Assembly: GCA_050253335.1 (NCBI GenBank)
Contig: JBFWJG010000012.1
Span: 1-48,661, forward strand
Origin: Deferribacterales bacterium
GTDB lineage: Bacteria > Chrysiogenota > Deferribacteres > Deferribacterales > Geovibrionaceae
Direction of reading: 5' to 3'
Length of the DNA stretch: 48,661 nucleotides
Shown here: one piece after another, positions 6,001-12,000 of the stretch
Layout: every line of letters begins with the position of its first letter
Position numbering within the stretch: the first letter of the stretch is position 1
Program-made: the position numbers

Positions 6001-9000
6001 GGGATAACCATAGACGGCTTTTACAGCTATTTTGTGGCCACCCTCGCCAGCGAGAAAAATCAGGCGGACACTTTTGTAACAACAATAACCTACTCCCTCA
6101 GCGAGCTTCAGCTCAAGATGGAGGAAATACAGGGCGTTTCCATGGACGAGGAACTCACCAACCTTATGAGATTCCAGCGTTCATACGAGGCAAGCGCCAG
6201 ATTCATAACCACGGTTGACAGCATGATAGACAAGCTGATCAACGGCACGGGACTTGTGGGCAGATAATAGCAGGGTGCTGATATGAGAGTTACTTACAAT
6301 TACATGACAATGAGATACCTCACCGGAATCCAGAACAACCTCAACGGTGTTTCAAACGGTCTGGACGCGGTCACGAAGGGGCGGAACCTCCTCACTCCGG
6401 AGCAGGACCCGGTAAGCTACATCTCCGCCCTCACCATACAGACCATGCTTGATGAATCCGCTCAGTTCAAAAGGAATGCGGAAAACGCCCTTACATGGCT
6501 CAGCAACGGCGATAATGAGCTTCAGTCCGCATCCAGCCTGATCAGTAAAGCGCTGAACGAGTACGCCATTTACGGCATGAACGACAGCCAGAGCACAGAA
6601 AGCCGTCAGGCTCTCGCAGGGGATGTTCAGGGGATAATCGAAGGTCTGCTCAATGTGGGCAACGCCTATTACAACGGTCGCTACCTTTTCTCCGGACACG
6701 CCACACAGACCAAGCCTTTCCAGACTCAGGAAAGGCAGGTAAGCTCCGTGGTCTCCAACATAAACGGCGCTGACGCCATGGTGCAGAAGCAGTACAACGA
6801 CATGCCGGAACTCAAGGAAGGCTCCTACACCATGAAGGTGACCGTCACCAACGGCATCGCCTCTGTTCAGCTTTTTGACAAAAACAACAATAAAGTGCTC
6901 TTGGATACAAACGGAACCGATGAAACGGCAGGAAAAGGGAACAACACGTCCTATACACTCACCACGGCCTACTCAAAAGGCATGGTAATAAACACAGGCA
7001 CAGGGGCAGGGGTCAAGCTGCCTGACGCCGACATGGAAGGGCGCACCCTCACCACAACTTTTTACTACAAACCGGGCGACAACGTAAGCTATTACGGCGA
7101 TGAAGGAATAGTCACCACCAAAATAGGCTACAGTCAGGATGTGGACATAAACATGACCGGACAGGAAATCTTTATGGAAACATACAAGACCCTGCGCGGA
7201 ACAGTCACCAACACCGTCAACGGCCTCTATGCCACACCCACGACCTACTTCTCCTCCCTTGACGGAGCAAACGCCATGCTGGCGGATTCCATAAGCATAA
7301 ACGGAACCGACCACAACGGCTATAAAATAGGCATAGCGAAGCTTACCGCTCCCGCTGCCGTCACACTTGACATGGCGACAGCCACCAAGGCGGAAAGAAC
7401 AGTCACACTGAAATACGCGGATGAAGAGTTTGAGCTGACCCTCGATCAGAAAGGGTACAATGATATAGACGAAGTGATCTTCGAGCTTAACAGAAAACTG
7501 GAGAACGAAGGTCTCGCTGACGAGATTCAGGCTGTTAACGACGGCGACAGGGTTATGTTCATAACCACAAGAAGCGGCGACAGGGTGCAGCTTGATCTCA
7601 GGGGCACAGTGAACAACAAGCTTGGATTCACCGACCCTACCCCTTCCTCGACAACGGATTTCACATACTCCGCCAAAGGCAAGGATACTGTATTCGAAAT
7701 AGGCTACAGCAGCTTTGACCAGCCGGTGACCATAGAATATAAAAACGAAACCCTCACCGGAGGGAACGACAACAGAGCAAATTTCCCCGCGGGAGTAAAT
7801 GAAATCTTCGTGAACGGAGTCGCCATGAGCTTCACCGTCAACGCAGGGGACACAGCGGAAGATATTCAGAATACAATAAATCAGACTCTGAAAGACAAAG
7901 GGTTCGCCTTCACTGTCACGGCTCAGGTGGAATCAACCCCCACGGCAGATATGTATGACCTCACGCTGAAGCTCCACAACGTAAACTACGGAGACGACAC
8001 ATTCCTCTCAGCCAAAGTGGACACGGCGGACGGCGTAAACGATTATCTCACCGCAAATCCGAAAAACTCGGACTACCCCACAACAACCGAAAAAAGGCTC
8101 GGGGATTTTCTCACGTTTGTGGAAAACCTGTATGATAACGCCGTGGACGCGTCCCTTGTGGACGGCAAGCTGGTTGTTCAGGACATAAGAAGCGGCTCCA
8201 GCAGGCTCACTTTCAACATAAATGAAGAGAACACCGGAATAGGCTACCCCATGCTTGAGCAGTCGGTGAAAGTCAGTGGGAAATACACCGGCACAAGGGA
8301 CGACAAATGGTCCTTCAATGTTGTTATGCAGGCCGCCAACCCCATGGATCCCAGTGATTTTGACAAAATAGTCGTCAGCGTCACAGACTCCAAAGGGAAC
8401 AAGGTCTCCACACAGACACTCAGGCAGGACGCCTACCATGGCCAGGAGATTGAGATAACCAAGGGGGTAAAAATTTCCCTCGGACAGGTCACAAACTCCA
8501 CAAGCTTCACTCTTGACCTCAACGCAGGCGCAAACGTGAGCTTCGGCGATATAAACGTGATAGAGGAAGGGAAAAACGTGGATACGTTCCGCTCCCTCAA
8601 GAACCTCTACAACGCTCTGAACCTCGATATCCCCGAACAGGGGATAGGTGCGCCCAGCGCATGGAGGGACACAGCGCTGAACTCAACCGCAACCCCATAT
8701 TTTGACGGAACATTCAGGGGGAACTATAACGATCTTTTCAACTTCCAGATACTGACAACCAACAGCCTCAGCGAGATGTATGTCCAGTCCGAGCTGAAGA
8801 GTGTTACCTCCGAAGTAAACTATACAGCTAACAGCGACATTGATTTCGATCTTGTCGTAAAAGACGGAAACAATGTTTATACCAGAAACATCTTCATAGA
8901 CAGAGACAGCATCTTCGCTTCAGTTGAAAGCCCCGCAGCGGGCACAGAGCCCGCGCGCCTCAGCTTCACGGAGCCGGCAGGCCTCACTTTCTACTATCAG

Positions 9001-12000
9001 GACGGAGGAGTCTGGACAGAAAGCGCCGTTAGCGTTCCCGCAGGAAACTACGCCAGTTTGAACGATATAGTTACGGCAATAAATACAGCCCCCGGCCTTC
9101 CGGCGGGAGTAACGGCAAATGCCGACCCCGACGGCACAATAAGCTTCACGGCGGGCGGCACGGTTACGAACCTCAATGTTTCCGGCGATGCGGACAGCGC
9201 TCTCGGTTTTGACTCATTCGATCCGGGAGAACTGATCATCAACACAGTAAATGATATGATCTCCACGGATGCTGATCTGGCAGGTCTCGGAGTACGTGCT
9301 TACAACAACGGCGGAAAGCTTGAGATATTCTCCGGCTCGGGAACCCACGAGATCTCCATGAACGCCAACAACGAAGGCACAGGGATGACATTCTTCCAGA
9401 CTTACAGCCCCACGAAGGCCCAGAATGCCGCTCCGCTGGCTTTCAGCACAAACAAGGTGCTGGATCTCACTTACTACGACACAGCCTCTGATACATGGAC
9501 AACAACGCAGGTAACTTTTCCCCCTGATATTTCAGGGGAGTATGCAGATGCTGCCACCCTTGCGGCGGCTGCGGCCGGACTTCCCGCGGATATTACAGTC
9601 ACGGCGGACAATAACGGAAACCTCAGCTTCACGGCGGGCGGAACCCTGACAAATCTTTCTGTTTCCGCAAACACCGCCCTCAGCGGCGAGAACGTGTCCG
9701 TACTCGGCTTTTATAAAACCGCATCGGCAGACAGCATAACCGCCGCCGGCTCACCCAAGCTTTTCCTTAAAGATGCCTCCACAGGCCAGAGGACAATAAG
9801 CTTCACCTATAATGACGGAACATCAAAAACCGCTTCCATAACACTTGAGGCTAAAGATTATGATTCCGTGGACGAACTATTAAATGAAGTCACCGACAAG
9901 CTCACAAACGCAGGGCTCGGAGCCATAATCAGCGCTGAACTGGTTGACGGGGAAAATCTCTCCTTCGTTTATGACGACACTGTGATAAACAGCTTCCATG
10001 TTTCAGGCGATTATGAAAGCACGCTCGGTTTTTCCAAAGCCGGAACAGAAGCGCAGATAAAGGTCACAGGCAGTGACGGGGAGCTCATCTCCATGTACAC
10101 CATTGACACCGCAAACGAGACATACCACGTTGCGGACGGTGTCTACGGCGGGTTTGATGCCGGCTACCTTTACGCCACCGACTCTTTCACTACCGCTGTC
10201 GGCTCCGGAATAGAGTACGAGCTGCCGGTGCTTGAGCAGGCGGAAACACAGATAACAAACTCACTCACCGCAGTGGGTACAAGACAGAACAGGGTGGAAA
10301 CCTCCATCAACTACTACACGGTGATGAGCACCACCAACGAAGAGATTAAGGCAGGCTATCTGGGAGCCTCGGCCGAGGATCAGAGTGCGGCCATCACTTC
10401 ATACCAGCTTGCACTGCAGGCTTACCAGACCGCTCTGCAGGCAACAGCGAAGATAATGAATATCTCGCTTCTCAACTTTCTTTAACAGGTAAGAGGTGAA
10501 TGAAGATGAAATCCAACCTTGCAGAAAACACAGAGGTTTCAATGGAAAAAATAAAAATGTCCTCAACCAAACTGGGTCCGATCGAATACACGGAGAATGA
10601 TATCATAACACTCTCGGCTCCGCTGCTGGGGTTTCCCGACCTCAGCGACTTTCTGCTGATTTCCAGTGACAAGTCGTTCCCTTTTCTCTGGTTTCAGGCA
10701 ACGCAGGATCCGGATGTATGCTTCATTCTCATAGAGCCGAAGATATTTCATCCGAACTATGACCCGAAAATCAACAAGCGCGAACTGAAAATACTCGGAA
10801 TCGAAAAAGATGAGCAGCTTAAAATAGCCGCTATAGTGGTGGTTCCGGAAGACCCGAAAAACGCCACAGTGAACCTGCGCGCCCCTGTTCTGTTAAATAC
10901 AGAGAAAAAACTGGCAAAACAGGTTATACTGGAAGATGACAGGTGGATGATAAAAGCTCCGCTTTTTGCCGCCAAGGATAAGTGATGCTTGTACTGTCCA
11001 GAAAAACGAACGAAAGTATAATAATAGGTGAAAACATAGAGATCCGCATAGTGGAAGTGGCGGGCAAAAGCGTTAAGCTTGGGATAGACGCTCCGAGGGA
11101 TGTCAGCGTGCACCGCAAGGAGATCTTCGAGGCGATAAAAGACGAAAATATACAGGCCGCCACAAAGGAAAACCTTGTTTCCCTTGTGGACTTCTTCAAA
11201 AACCAAAACACATAAAGCTGAGCAGTAGGTCATAATTCCCGGTCTTCAGGGAATTATGATGTGCGCCCCGGGCGGGGCAAATCTTCCTTCACCGCGTTCA
11301 TAACCCGGCGGGAAAGCCGCCTCCCCGAGGGCTGCGGCATTGCCCAAGCCTTTTCAGACTATCCTTCCTTATCAGCCTCAACAGCGTCGATGCGTTTGTT
11401 AAGATCGCTTATCTTTGTGCCGAGGCTCAGCATATACCCGCCGAGAAGAACCCATATTATTGAATAAGCGCCAACTATATACCAGAAATCCTGCATGAAT
11501 AACTCCTTTATATCTTTTATATTCTTAATCAGCCTCTTCCGGCGACATAGTCGCCTATGCTGATGCGTTTGCGTATGCGTTTCTTAACGGTCTCCCTTTT
11601 GCTCATGGAAAGCCTGTCTATGAAGAGAACTCCGTTCAGATGGTCTATCTCATGCTGAAGAGCCCTCGCGAGAAAGCCTTCAGCCTGAACAACCGTTTCC
11701 GTTCCGTCTTCTTTCATATACCTGACAACGGCTCTGGACGGTCTGGCAACAACTTCGTATTCGCCGGGGACGCTGAGGCATCCTTCTTCATTGACGTCCG
11801 GTTCGCCTGAAAGTTCCAGAATTTCAGGGTTTATAATCTTCAGGAGCGAGTCGGAATCTTCTCCGGCGCTGATATCAACCACAATAACACGCTTATTCAC
11901 TCCGACCTGCGGAGCGGCGAGACCCACGCCCTTTGCGCTCCGCATGGTGTCCACCATGTCCTCAAGCAGTTTTCTGACAGAATCGTCAACAACCGCCACA

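Follow-up and report, generated by a model that had tools for sequence, protein, structure and literature searches.

FlgL (HAP3) leaves the cell in unfolded form by the flagellar type III channel, aided by FlgN, the export chaperone for the hook-associated proteins FlgK and FlgL. Eleven copies polymerise by their terminal D0/D1 helices atop the FlgK layer, and FliD, followed by flagellin, assembles on the FlgL layer. The sections of PMC12221982 consulted here place a 'bulky D2 domain' of Campylobacter FlgL where junction and cap meet. The consulted sections of PMC11532411 give the G. thiophilus filament a diameter of 240 Å and describe an outer shell of two layers enclosing D0/D1 completely; as stated in a preliminary description of the locus studied here, FlgL has 0 occurrences in that text. 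FlgL proteins longer than 1000 aa from other phyla already appear in the portion used here of a 2018 supplementary table (PMC6248924, S1 file).

The window is the whole 48,661-nt stretch of contig JBFWJG010000012.1 of a Deferribacterales bacterium. In the flgK-flgL position it contains an intact ORF of 1400 aa with an ATG start (Table 1). This start, 15 nt past the flgK stop, is preceded at 7 nt by an AGGGTG Shine-Dalgarno-like motif. The Pfam-based gene order is flgA, flgH, flgI, flgJ-like, flgM, flgN, flgK (585 aa; TIGR02492, 359.7 bits, cut-off 170.75), the giant flgL and fliW, followed by a 77-aa ORF which we take to be csrA from the look of its sequence. In all 31 genomes with coordinates that were compared, the giant flgL immediately follows flgK. 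A metatranscriptome contig of 5379 nt from one study aligns without gaps to window positions 5633-11011, differing at 184 positions; the RNA-library contigs of that single study are 96-97% identical to the window, which points to a related strain, and possibly represent carried-over DNA.

Table 1. Features of the flgL locus in the window; domain limits within FlgL are predicted.
Feature	Position	Strand	Basis
flgN, export chaperone of FlgK and FlgL	4021..4500	+	Pfam FlgN, E 1.6e-14
flgK (HAP1), 585 aa, canonical size	4510..6267	+	TIGR02492; Pfam FlgK_D1, Flg_bbr_C, Flg_bb_rod
flgL (HAP3), whole gene incl. stop codon	6283..10485	+	ORF; TIGR02550; PDB FlgL sequence matches
FlgL 1-148, N-terminal D0/D1 helices	6283..6726	+	Pfam Flagellin_N 4-141; Salmonella FlgL 9go6_L
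FlgL 149-290, beta domain B1, FlgL-type accessory (D2-like) domain	6727..7152	+	TIGR02550; 5ziz superposition
FlgL 291-350, N-terminal part of split domain	7153..7332	+	fold matches of model range 158..626
FlgL 351-467, module M1, Flagellin_IN-type	7333..7683	+	hhalign M1-M7 99.6%
FlgL 468-599, module M2, divergent M1 relative	7684..8079	+	hhalign M1-M2 56.8%
FlgL 600-650, half-module M3 (helix and three strands)	8080..8232	+	model secondary structure
FlgL 651-750, beta domain B2	8233..8532	+	Legionella FlgL 7c7z superposition; hhalign
FlgL 751-875, most conserved stretch	8533..8907	+	conservation index; invariant residues
FlgL 876-980, module M4, with Pfam Flagellin_IN match	8908..9222	+	PF07196 at 901-958
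FlgL 981-1030, half-module M5	9223..9372	+	hhalign M4-M5; two helices and two strands in model
FlgL 1031-1145, module M6, variably present (occupancy 0.52-0.68)	9373..9717	+	hhalign to M4 and M7
FlgL 1146-1252, module M7, in nearly all members	9718..10038	+	fold matches
FlgL 1253-1309, conserved beta-hairpin region B3 leading into D1	10039..10209	+	index 0.64; four model strands
FlgL 1310-1400, C-terminal D1/D0 helices	10210..10482	+	model helices; Flagellin_C below cut-off
fliW	10500..10985	+	Pfam FliW, E 4.8e-37
csrA (presumed), 77 aa, overlaps fliW end	10982..11215	+	ORF and translation

Judged from its sequence, the product is assigned as FlgL (HAP3), the hook-filament junction protein, enlarged about four-fold; ORF, gene order, TIGR02550 and PDB matches agree with the preliminary description on this point. 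The NCBIfam FlgL equivalog model TIGR02550 gives 129.1 bits against a cut-off of 127.2, a margin of just 1.9 bits. Pfam Flagellin_N covers residues 4-141 (E 1.4e-11, 45 bits), as described before, but it is not the only Pfam match: Flagellin_IN (PF07196) at 901-958 exceeds its cut-off (31.2 versus 22.7 bits), and Flagellin_C at 1316-1400 (E 0.004) falls under the Pfam cut-off. A PDB sequence search returned five matches at E<=1, all inside residues 1-149 as had been claimed. Four of these are named FlgL/HAP3, one is named 'Spelter', and none is a flagellin; residues 1-148 of Salmonella FlgL (9go6_L) align to residues 1-148 of the giant protein (E 4.4e-10).

It is very improbable that the protein is a giant or minor flagellin, or a multi-layer FlgL forming a short proximal filament segment. 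NCBI and UniProt do label Deferribacter homologues 'flagellin', and modelling in the consulted sections of PMC12221982 found no steric clash in a double FlgL layer. However, the genome has three Flagellin_N loci, and the other two, true flagellins, score 159 and 157.6 bits. The naming of the PDB matches, the passing of the equivalog model and the conserved gene slot likewise argue against the flagellin reading, as does the lack of a second FlgL candidate among the Flagellin_N loci of the genome. As the distal junction protein between hook and filament (HAP3), the giant protein is the only FlgL of the cell.

FlgL is enlarged throughout the phylum. The FlgL model was matched in 66 of 68 genomes, and frames of 1142-1544 aa were read in 59 of them; the insert is retained in every genome with a complete frame, the shortest being 1142 aa. 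Chrysiogenes arsenatis also has a member (1523 aa). The family had been thought tiny (19 clusters, 1237-1449 aa), which proved to be a search artefact: search words from residues 1-150 give 19 clusters, while words drawn over the full length give at least 45, of 1138-1529 aa.

FlgL was folded with AF2 as two halves from a 57-row alignment. The mean pLDDT was 81.6 (pTM 0.76) for the N-terminal half and 87.4 (pTM 0.73) for the C-terminal half, better than the mean of 71 given earlier for residues 141-1300. Residues 781-839 (model 641-699) have a pLDDT of 31-44; this most conserved segment is the worst predicted. The approximately 1160 residues between the terminal helices are predicted to form about twelve small beta-rich domains. 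In the models their order is an FlgL-type accessory domain, a split FliD-D2/flagellin-D2-like domain with nested modules, a highly conserved linker, and a variable C-terminal string of Flagellin_IN modules. The C-terminal half ends in two long model helices (model 451-501 and 505-540). Only residues 1-148 and the last ~100 had been considered FlgL-like, with an insert of ~1150 aa. The TIGR02550 alignment covers residues 2-219, however, and residues 151-263 (model 11..123) superpose on Xanthomonas FlgL 5ziz 192..280 (Z 6.7, rmsd 3.0, 83 aligned, 20% identity), so the lineage-specific insert is closer to ~960 aa (291-1252).

The best fold matches reported before, G. thiophilus flagellin 9au6, FliD and the Campylobacter junction complex 9gsx, were recovered. 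FlgL domains match flagellin, FliD and FlgL outer domains at Z 5-8.7, values within the range that the tool calls common for unrelated folds, and Foldseek TM-scores of the whole models are only ~0.1. In the model the split domain resumes and is completed near residues 740-766, and other modules sit inside it. Model range 158..626 matches discontinuous domains in G. thiophilus flagellin (9au6_A 176..592: Z 8.7, rmsd 3.1, 112 aligned), FliD (6sih 108..259, Z 8.6) and Campylobacter (9gsx_A 184..630, Z 8.3). B2 (model 511..607) superposes on Legionella FlgL 7c7z 191..291 (Z 5.3), and hhalign relates it to B1 (60%) and B3 (70%). For M1 (model 211..327) the Vibrio FlaA outer domain 9n8g_C is a structural match (Z 7.8). 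M2 (model 342..453) matches cyanophage sheath protein 8kee_C (Z 6.4) and Ig-like chains (Z ~3.5).

Four modules of FlgL are paralogous ~100-aa Flagellin_IN units with the fold of FliD D2/D3 and flagellin outer domains. Among the C-terminal modules, hhalign probabilities are 99.6% for M4-M6, 99.0% for M6-M7 and 46% for M4-M5; M3-M5 is weak (21%). M4 (model 26..120) superposes on FliD D2-D3 5h5v (Z 5.6), and is missing from most family members (alignment occupancy 0.16-0.35). Fold matches of M7 (model 289..392) include the outer domain of Vibrio flagellin 9p7r_A1 (Z 8.2, rmsd 2.5, 89 aligned), FliC 4nx9 of P. aeruginosa (Z 6.5) and FliD 6iwy (Z 6.1). Within the genome the modules are confined to FlgL, a new observation: 12 module HMMs against 15,714 six-frame ORFs, and tblastn with the insert, revealed no paralogue, in line with the preliminary description.

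Also new is that the outer N-lobe appears about as conserved as the D0/D1 core (index 0.54-0.69 versus 0.61-0.62 in 57 sequences). The index rises to 0.68-0.72 at residues 761-820; W794, G813 and N816 are invariant in the 57 sequences, and the family consensus at 781-839 is GIGAPSAW...PYFDG.FRGNYND. Between the window and G. thiophilus, FlgL identity is 88-91% in the core, 90.6% in the N-lobe and 83.6% in the C-lobe, while flagellin identity is 83-91% in the core and 46.5% in the outer region. Over larger distances within the phylum, the N-lobe has changed more than the core (Calditerrivibrio: 42% versus 53-55%; Deferribacter: 38% versus 57-64%).

The filament's outer-domain layer had been proposed to continue over the junction and hook, and this is only partly supported. 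In its favor, the giant flagellins (1034 and 1045/1026 aa) and the 943-aa FlgE of the genome were found as described. FlgE (805-1459 aa), flagellin (about 756-1090 aa) and FliD (about 870-1020 aa, match in 62 of 68 genomes) are, like FlgL, enlarged across the phylum. FlgK, which builds the other layer of the junction, shows no such enlargement (574-628 aa; 62 of 68 genomes had a match), and this phylum-wide pattern is a new observation. The superposition of the split domain on 9au6_A and the acidity of the insert (net charge -6.9 per 100 aa, pI 4.23; flagellins -7.8) also fit a continuous layer. Despite the fold superposition, the outer domains have no detectable sequence homology to those of flagellin, and for this reason the support is partial: BLASTP of FlgL against the flagellin outer region gave no match, and in hhalign the best FlgL segment reached 29.5% probability and the other 11 <=1%. 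FlgL length also does not track flagellin length: FlgL has 1400 aa in this genome as in G. thiophilus, while the flagellins are ~1030 and 793-801 aa, respectively. FlgL and FlgE lengths correlate across genomes (rho 0.90, n=52) and family means (0.80, n=9), uncorrected for phylogeny; inside families the correlation is not significant (0.34, n=14).

The outer region might mainly dock the enlarged FliD cap and set the pattern for the outer-domain lattice in the first turn of flagellin, acting in filament initiation and not as a mechanical collar. The size of FliD in the phylum and the FliD D2/D3 fold of the FlgL modules are consistent with this, and a fixed partner fits the high conservation. 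In the junction-cap complex of Campylobacter the bulky FlgL D2 adjoins FliD D3/D4 (PMC12221982, sections consulted). Such a role is nevertheless unlikely: a common fold is no proof of binding, and FlgL length does not track that of flagellin. There is a slim chance that the acidic outer domains bind minerals, metal oxides or other surfaces at the filament base. Adhesion to positively charged minerals is proposed for the G. thiophilus filament in the consulted sections of PMC11532411, the insert is acidic like the flagellins, and low-score fold matches to adhesin-like/chitin-binding proteins (GbpA, Z 4-4.9) were seen. However, eleven cell-proximal copies add little to thousands of equally acidic flagellins, the family is retained in very different habitats (judged by species names and database run labels), and no binding motif was found.

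Equally, the insert could be ballast without a specific role, tolerated where Flagellin_IN cassettes were duplicated in a permissive surface loop. Duplication is clear among the four modules, C-lobe modules were gained or lost between genera (occupancy 0.16-0.68 at 876-980 and 1031-1145), and giant FlgLs arose in several phyla according to the portion used of the PMC6248924 S1 file. This is improbable given that the N-lobe and residues 751-839 are conserved to about the same degree as the polymerising core, are 90.6% identical between two species with such divergent flagellin outer domains, and that the insert persists in every phylum genome that has a complete frame.

The reading we favor, with moderate confidence, is that the eleven FlgL outer regions (~1.4 MDa in total) would form a fixed acidic collar round the junction. 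Conservation of the N-lobe points to fixed protein partners and not to a free decoration. By our arithmetic from residue counts, its outer mass would be ~2.8x that of one turn of G. thiophilus flagellin, so the collar could not fit one subunit layer at filament packing density. The collar would have to extend along the axis, in the simplest case over the FlgK layer, which is not enlarged, or else widen outwards. Such a collar would bridge the thick hook and the thick filament both mechanically and sterically.

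On sequence grounds the flgL gene is real and its identification is solid. The reading frame is uninterrupted, starts with ATG and encodes 1400 aa. An AGGGTG motif lies 7 nt 5' of the start codon and the flgK stop codon is 15 nt upstream. Pfam searches of the neighbouring ORFs gave the order flgA, flgH, flgI, a rod-binding flgJ-like gene, flgM, flgN, flgK (585 aa), flgL, fliW, and flgK is directly upstream of flgL on the same strand in all 31 genomes compared by coordinates. The protein passes the NCBIfam FlgL equivalog TIGR02550 narrowly (129.1 bits, cut-off 127.2); in a six-frame search of the genome its N-terminal piece alone reached 105.5 bits. 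Flagellin_N is found with an E-value of 1.4e-11 (45 bits, cut-off 26.6) and Flagellin_C stays under its cut-off (17.9 bits against 23), with residues 1310-1399 predicted as two long helices in the AF2 model (pLDDT about 70, dropping to 38 towards the end). The preliminary description listed Flagellin_N as the only Pfam domain, but Flagellin_IN (PF07196) is also above its gathering cut-off (31.2 bits, cut-off 22.7). PDB sequence searches matched five chains at E<=1, all within residues 1-149. Four are named FlgL or HAP3, the fifth carries just the name 'Spelter', and none is a flagellin.

Could the protein instead be a giant flagellin, a subunit of the filament? Giant flagellins belong to the same superfamily, exceed 1000 aa and have grown by extension of the outer domains (Thomson et al. 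2018, PMC6248924). They build the filament in thousands of copies, whereas the model match, the gene position and the PDB matches all mark this protein as FlgL. The TIGR02550 pass, the flgK-adjacent position, the FlgL-named PDB chains and a Flagellin_N match that is weak beside those of the genome's flagellins make the flagellin reading very unlikely. The genome has three Flagellin_N loci, of which the other two are strong flagellins (159 and 157.6 bits, Flagellin_C above cut-off), which leaves this protein as the sole FlgL candidate. The initial placement of a FlgL in the flgK-flgL position thus stands on gene order, TIGR02550 and PDB matches within 1-149. Models of the large epsilonproteobacterial FlgLs failed to recognize the protein (PRK14692, 44.5 against 878 bits; PRK08412, 57.7 against 749 bits), with only residues 1-152 aligning.

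Downstream, a 77-aa ORF that overlaps the end of fliW has a translation that we take to be CsrA. It has a GTG start 4 nt ahead of the fliW stop, and the two genes are probably translationally coupled. A scan of positions 3500-11600 for sigma-70 promoters and terminators, which did not include sigma-28, yielded 8 and 16 hits against 6.6 and 10.5 in shuffled controls, with no excess. Flagellar late genes are usually sigma-28-dependent. In four metatranscriptome runs of one study 22-31% of the sampled flgL words were found, on contigs 96-97% identical to the window, and in one run a single gapless contig of 5379 nt begins at the end of flgK, spans flgL and fliW and reaches into csrA. The RNA libraries thus contain an intact flgL from a related strain, which is a record of presence and not proof of transcription.

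Between the terminal helices (the D0/D1 core) lies a chain of domains whose limits are given in the table. Self-BLAST of the entire protein returned nothing, and windowed self-BLAST with an HMM built from its matches detected a module of about 100 aa in four places. Profile-profile comparison of the family sub-alignments with hhalign found the modules M1, M4, M6 and M7 mutually paralogous at 88-99.6%, and it is M4 that bears the Flagellin_IN match. M2 is only weakly related to them (57%), M3 and M5 match at 21-46% and count as half-modules, and among the beta domains B1, B2 and B3 the relationship is weak (60-70%). AF2-type models built from a 57-row alignment had a mean pLDDT of 81.6 and pTM of 0.76 for residues 141-880, and 87.4 and 0.73 for residues 860-1400.

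Features of the FlgL protein, its gene and loci mentioned in the text (residues are those of the 1400-aa FlgL)
Feature	Location	Remark
flgL	6283..10485	window, + strand
csrA start/fliW stop overlap	10982-10985	window
Terminal helices (core)	1-148, 1310-1400	D0/D1
Flagellin_N	4-141	Pfam
B1	149-290	beta domain
Split domain	291-350, closing ~740-766	
M1	351-467	module
M2	468-599	module
M3	600-650	module
B2	651-750	beta domain
Best-conserved stretch	781-839	window 8623-8799
M4	876-980	module
Flagellin_IN	901-958	Pfam
M5	981-1030	module
M6	1031-1145	module
M7	1146-1252	module
B3	1253-1309	beta domain
Flagellin_C	1316-1400	Pfam, under cut-off
~100-aa repeat	about 351-440, 878-976, 1037-1143, 1149-1250	four copies
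Own flagellins compared with G. thiophilus	5203-8307	flagellin locus L004, contig C10
Flagellin genes and sugar-modification island	5203-19736	flagellin locus L004, contig C10
Second FlgL-like frame, G055 (genus g18)	C60:4076-5467	
Second FlgL-like frame, G058 (genus g18)	C1:1887-3311	
Second FlgL-like frame, G060 (genus g18)	C33:2834-4207	
Second FlgL-like frame, G061 (genus g18)	C25:3040-4431	

Foldseek with whole models placed the same names first as the preliminary description had (9au6, the Geovibrio thiophilus flagellin; Helicobacter pylori FliD; the Campylobacter junction complex 9gsx), at a TM score of only about 0.1. Domain-wise structure alignment (VIA) superposed the split domain (model positions 158..626) on 9au6_A 176..592 (Z 8.7), FliD D2/D3 (Z 7.6-8.6) and 9gsx_A 184..630 (Z 8.3), and the repeated module on outer domains of Vibrio and Pseudomonas flagellins and on FliD D2-D3 (Z 5-8.2). 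According to the tool's own warning, Z values below 8 are common among unrelated folds. The proposed likeness in these predicted models is therefore carried by the recurrence of flagellar proteins in the top rows and not by any single score. The alignments covered mainly positions 178-623 of the first model and 273-395 and 448-539 of the second; as the other parts are barely covered, no new fold is claimed for any domain.

Salmonella FlgL (317 aa, 9GO6 chain L) occupies the same operon slot after flgK and likewise has two C-terminal helices; its residues 1-148 align end to end with residues 1-148 of the window protein (E 4.4e-10). The window protein is 4.4 times as long, and the part from about 290 to about 1252 is without a Salmonella counterpart. 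Residues 151-263 superpose on positions 192..280 of Xanthomonas campestris FlgL (5ZIZ, Z 6.7) and residues 651-747 on 191..291 of Legionella pneumophila FlgL (7C7Z, Z 5.3), but these FlgLs end at one accessory domain, while about 960 further residues come after it here. The insert of about 1150 aa described initially is thus too long: the FlgL-like part runs to about 290 and resumes at about 1253, and the lineage-specific insert is about 960 aa. FlgLs of the Campylobacter/Helicobacter type also carry a large outer domain growing from D1, and the Campylobacter protein is credited with a 'bulky D2 domain' at the junction (PMC12221982). The split domain superposes on C. jejuni FlgL (about 750 aa; junction-cap structure 9GSX) with an rmsd of 2.5 and 19% identity over 115 aligned residues. 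The Campylobacter protein is only about half as large, 9gsx is absent from the PDB sequence matches, and the large epsilonproteobacterial FlgL models align to the N-terminus only. The chain of twelve domains and the conserved stretch at 751-839 are specific to the Deferribacterota/Chrysiogenes family.

The family is larger than the 19 clusters of the preliminary description, a figure that was reproduced exactly when the search words came from residues 1-150 only. With words from the whole length at least 45 clusters of 1138-1529 aa were found, and named members include G. thiophilus (1400 aa, 89% identity), Limisalsivibrio, four Deferribacter species and Calditerrivibrio. In a six-frame search of the phylum, with one genome per species, 66 of 68 genomes matched the FlgL model, and all 23 genera were represented. 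Among the matches listed, FlgL frames measure 1142-1544 aa in 59 genomes. This count leaves out two incomplete genomes (G063, 1285 aa, 57% complete; G064, 1428 aa, 75% complete), two frames that may be cut by contig ends (G067, 795 aa; G044, 467 aa) and three genomes in which FlgL was not among the matches listed (G007, G041, G066). The nearly complete genomes G019 and G021 of genus g8 gave no match to FlgL, FlgK, FlgE or FliD. Two other genomes of this genus have all four, and G019 and G021 are probably non-flagellated members.

Among 1.84 billion representatives, the insert alone (149-1310) matched only 42 clusters at E<=0.001, and the matches begin near target residue 150 in nearly all of them. 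One of these clusters contains a 1523-aa member from Chrysiogenes arsenatis. In genus g18 a second FlgL-like frame of 496-516 aa was observed besides the FlgL of 1469-1544 aa; these second frames cover TIGR02550 positions 14-377 or 14-380 with E-values of about 1e-30 to 1e-28. The longest FlgLs (P0039-P0043, 1460-1529 aa) have a precomputed Pfam match to PF11589 that is absent from the window protein, and additional sequence around query positions 410-640. A search with N-terminal words for giant FlgLs in other phyla turned up a single sequence from outside, an 882-aa Pirellulales FlgL, since such an index depends on close relatives. The ESM Atlas returned only generic flagellin-family clusters of 421-814 aa and no giant FlgL.

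Giant FlgLs of more than 1000 aa are nevertheless catalogued in other phyla, likewise with FlgL termini and a modular insert of roughly 1 kb. Table S1 of PMC6248924 lists 'hook-associated protein 3' of 1013-1243 aa in at least seven other lineages (Blastopirellula, Desulfobacterales, Thermosulfidibacter, Glassbacteria, Dethiosulfovibrio, Synergistetes, Thermanaerovibrio), and also the proteins of Mucispirillum (1514 aa), Denitrovibrio (1284 aa), Deferribacter (1168 aa) and Calditerrivibrio (1141 aa). By the cluster search above, the insert sequence is private to the Deferribacterota/Chrysiogenes family.

Conservation was assessed in an alignment of 57 sequences. The N-lobe segments 149-467, 600-650 and 741-839 have a conservation index of 0.54-0.69, against 0.61-0.62 for the terminal helices, and residues 861-980 and 1031-1145 are often missing from family members. 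The peak of the whole protein is at 761-820, with W794, G813 and N816 invariant, and it overlaps the sole poorly predicted stretch (pLDDT 31-44). The best-conserved stretch has the family consensus GIGAPSAW... and PYFDG.FRGNYND. Its poor prediction would be explicable if the segment became ordered only in the assembled state. When residues 1-148, 1253-1400 and 741-875 were modelled as three chains of a complex, as a test for docking of the conserved stretch on FlgL's own D0/D1, the ipSAE values were 0.00 and 0.04 against a mark of 0.32, a result that counts neither way.

As a control, identities of FlgL and flagellin to those of G. thiophilus were compared for core and outer regions in matched species. 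For the window organism FlgL is 88-91% identical in the core, 90.6% in the N-lobe and 83.6% in the C-lobe, and flagellin 83-91% in the core and 46.5% in the outer region. For Calditerrivibrio the values are 53-55% (core) and 42% (N-lobe) for FlgL, and 63-74% (core) and 38.8% (outer region) for flagellin. The Calditerrivibrio figures mean that at phylum distance the N-lobe of FlgL is less well kept than the FlgL core. Judged from these sequences, constraint on the N-lobe is strong, yet below that on the core. Relative to the core, the outer region of flagellin evolves at about twice the rate.

The preliminary description linked the giant FlgL to the long flagellins and 943-aa FlgE of the same genome, which were found as described (flagellins of 1034 and 1045/1026 aa), and suggested an outer layer continuous over junction and hook. 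The flagellin of G. thiophilus (793 aa, 9AU6; PMC11532411), from the same genus, has nested, beta-rich, acidic outer domains, and its segment 176..592 matches the FlgL split domain with 21% identity over 112 aligned residues; from the alignment bounds this segment appears to span the flagellin D2 domain. A derivation of the FlgL modules from flagellin outer domains was rejected as far as homology can be detected: no sequence or profile homology between the two outer regions was found. BLASTP of FlgL against the genome's own flagellins, FlgE and FlgK gave no match past the N-terminal helices. When the FlgL segments were aligned by hhalign to the outer region of 60 flagellins of the phylum, the best one reached 29.5% and the other 11 stayed at <=1%. 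The reported lack of a paralogue held as well: twelve module HMMs and tblastn found no module copy in any other of the 15,714 six-frame ORFs of the genome.

Lengths were also compared across the phylum. In the 62 genomes where FlgK was matched its frames span 574-628 aa, which makes FlgK the sole external axial protein that is not enlarged. FlgE frames measure 805-1459 aa in 52 tabulated genomes (among the matches listed, and leaving out frames that looked cut), and FliD frames mostly 869-1020 aa. Most flagellin frames have 756-838 aa, but those of this genome and of one other family reach about 1000 aa. FlgL length does not track flagellin length, as FlgL has 1400 aa both here and in G. thiophilus and the flagellins differ by about 240 aa. 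Longer FlgLs go with longer FlgEs, with a rho of 0.90 across genomes (n=52), 0.89 across genus means (n=19) and 0.80 across family means (n=9), but within families the correlation is not significant (0.34, n=14); all these values are uncorrected for phylogeny. The relationship is between clades and is a lead only. A continuous layer is plausible in outline, but it lacks homology support and FlgK contradicts it in detail.

Some further observations concern the flagellins and FliD of this genome. Compared with G. thiophilus, whose flagellins have 793-801 aa, the own flagellins have about 240 aa more, and a form of about 1034-1043 aa occurs in only 2 of the 120 relatives listed (P0105, P0106). 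A sugar-modification island with MptE-like (Maf-type), PseB-like dehydratase, NeuB, formyltransferase-like, CMP-sugar cytidylyltransferase and DegT aminotransferase genes lies between the two giant flagellin genes (1034 and 1045/1026 aa). These Pfam families suggest nonulosonic-acid glycosylation of the flagellins. For fliD there was no real match with Pfam FliD_C/FliD_N and none by tblastn with an 886-aa FliD of the same genus. FliD is present in 62 of 68 phylum genomes, including all three others of the genus, and an assembly gap (142 contigs) is the likeliest explanation.

In the known junction eleven FlgL subunits form the distal layer in an 11+11 arrangement (PMC12221982). By calculation each subunit contributes about 128 kDa of outer region (149-1309), and a ring about 1.4 MDa. 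The solved flagellin of G. thiophilus, whose filament has a diameter of 240 A (PMC11532411), has 417 outer residues, and the FlgL outer region amounts to about 2.8 times that number. Such an outer mass does not fit into one layer at filament density, so it would spread over neighbouring layers or flare outward. As FlgK alone is not enlarged, the simplest reading is that the FlgL outer region also covers the FlgK layer, where it would bridge the thick hook and the fully clothed filament. A tentative proposal, which in its entirety we consider rather unlikely to be correct, is a junction substructure of Deferribacterota/Chrysiogenes: a collar of about 1.4 MDa made only of the outer regions of eleven FlgL subunits. 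Its N-lobe would have fixed contacts through the invariant stretch 751-839 and clothe the FlgK layer, its variable Flagellin_IN C-lobe would scale with hook thickness, and the collar would bear load or seal and would have evolved independently in FlgLs of several phyla.

The hook-filament junction is described in PMC12221982 as solved only for Salmonella and Campylobacter, where FlgL is small or moderately enlarged. Oversized FlgL is recurrent, catalogued and unstudied: the giant-flagellin study built HMMs that filter FlgL out (PMC6248924), and with this deliberate exclusion giant FlgLs sat unexamined in databases, often misnamed 'flagellin' or 'hypothetical protein'. The paper on the G. thiophilus filament has, as stated earlier, 0 occurrences of FlgL (PMC11532411), and when FlgL was searched for along with the genus names of Deferribacterota, none of the 15 best-ranked of 1,213 papers contained it. 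The Deferribacterota/Chrysiogenes family is one lineage-specific version, set apart by being kept phylum-wide, by the strong conservation of its N-lobe, by modules of its own and by a FlgK that is not enlarged. Flagella of G. thiophilus are good enough for cryo-EM at 3-4 A (PMC11532411) and its FlgL is 89% identical, so the junction role of the giant FlgL can be tested directly in a close relative. Of the two proteins that form the junction, FlgL has over a thousand extra, strongly conserved residues and its partner FlgK has none, a contrast that holds phylum-wide, including the mouse-gut bacterium Mucispirillum schaedleri. If the collar exists, it would be a load-bearing or sealing element needed by thick, fully sheathed flagella.
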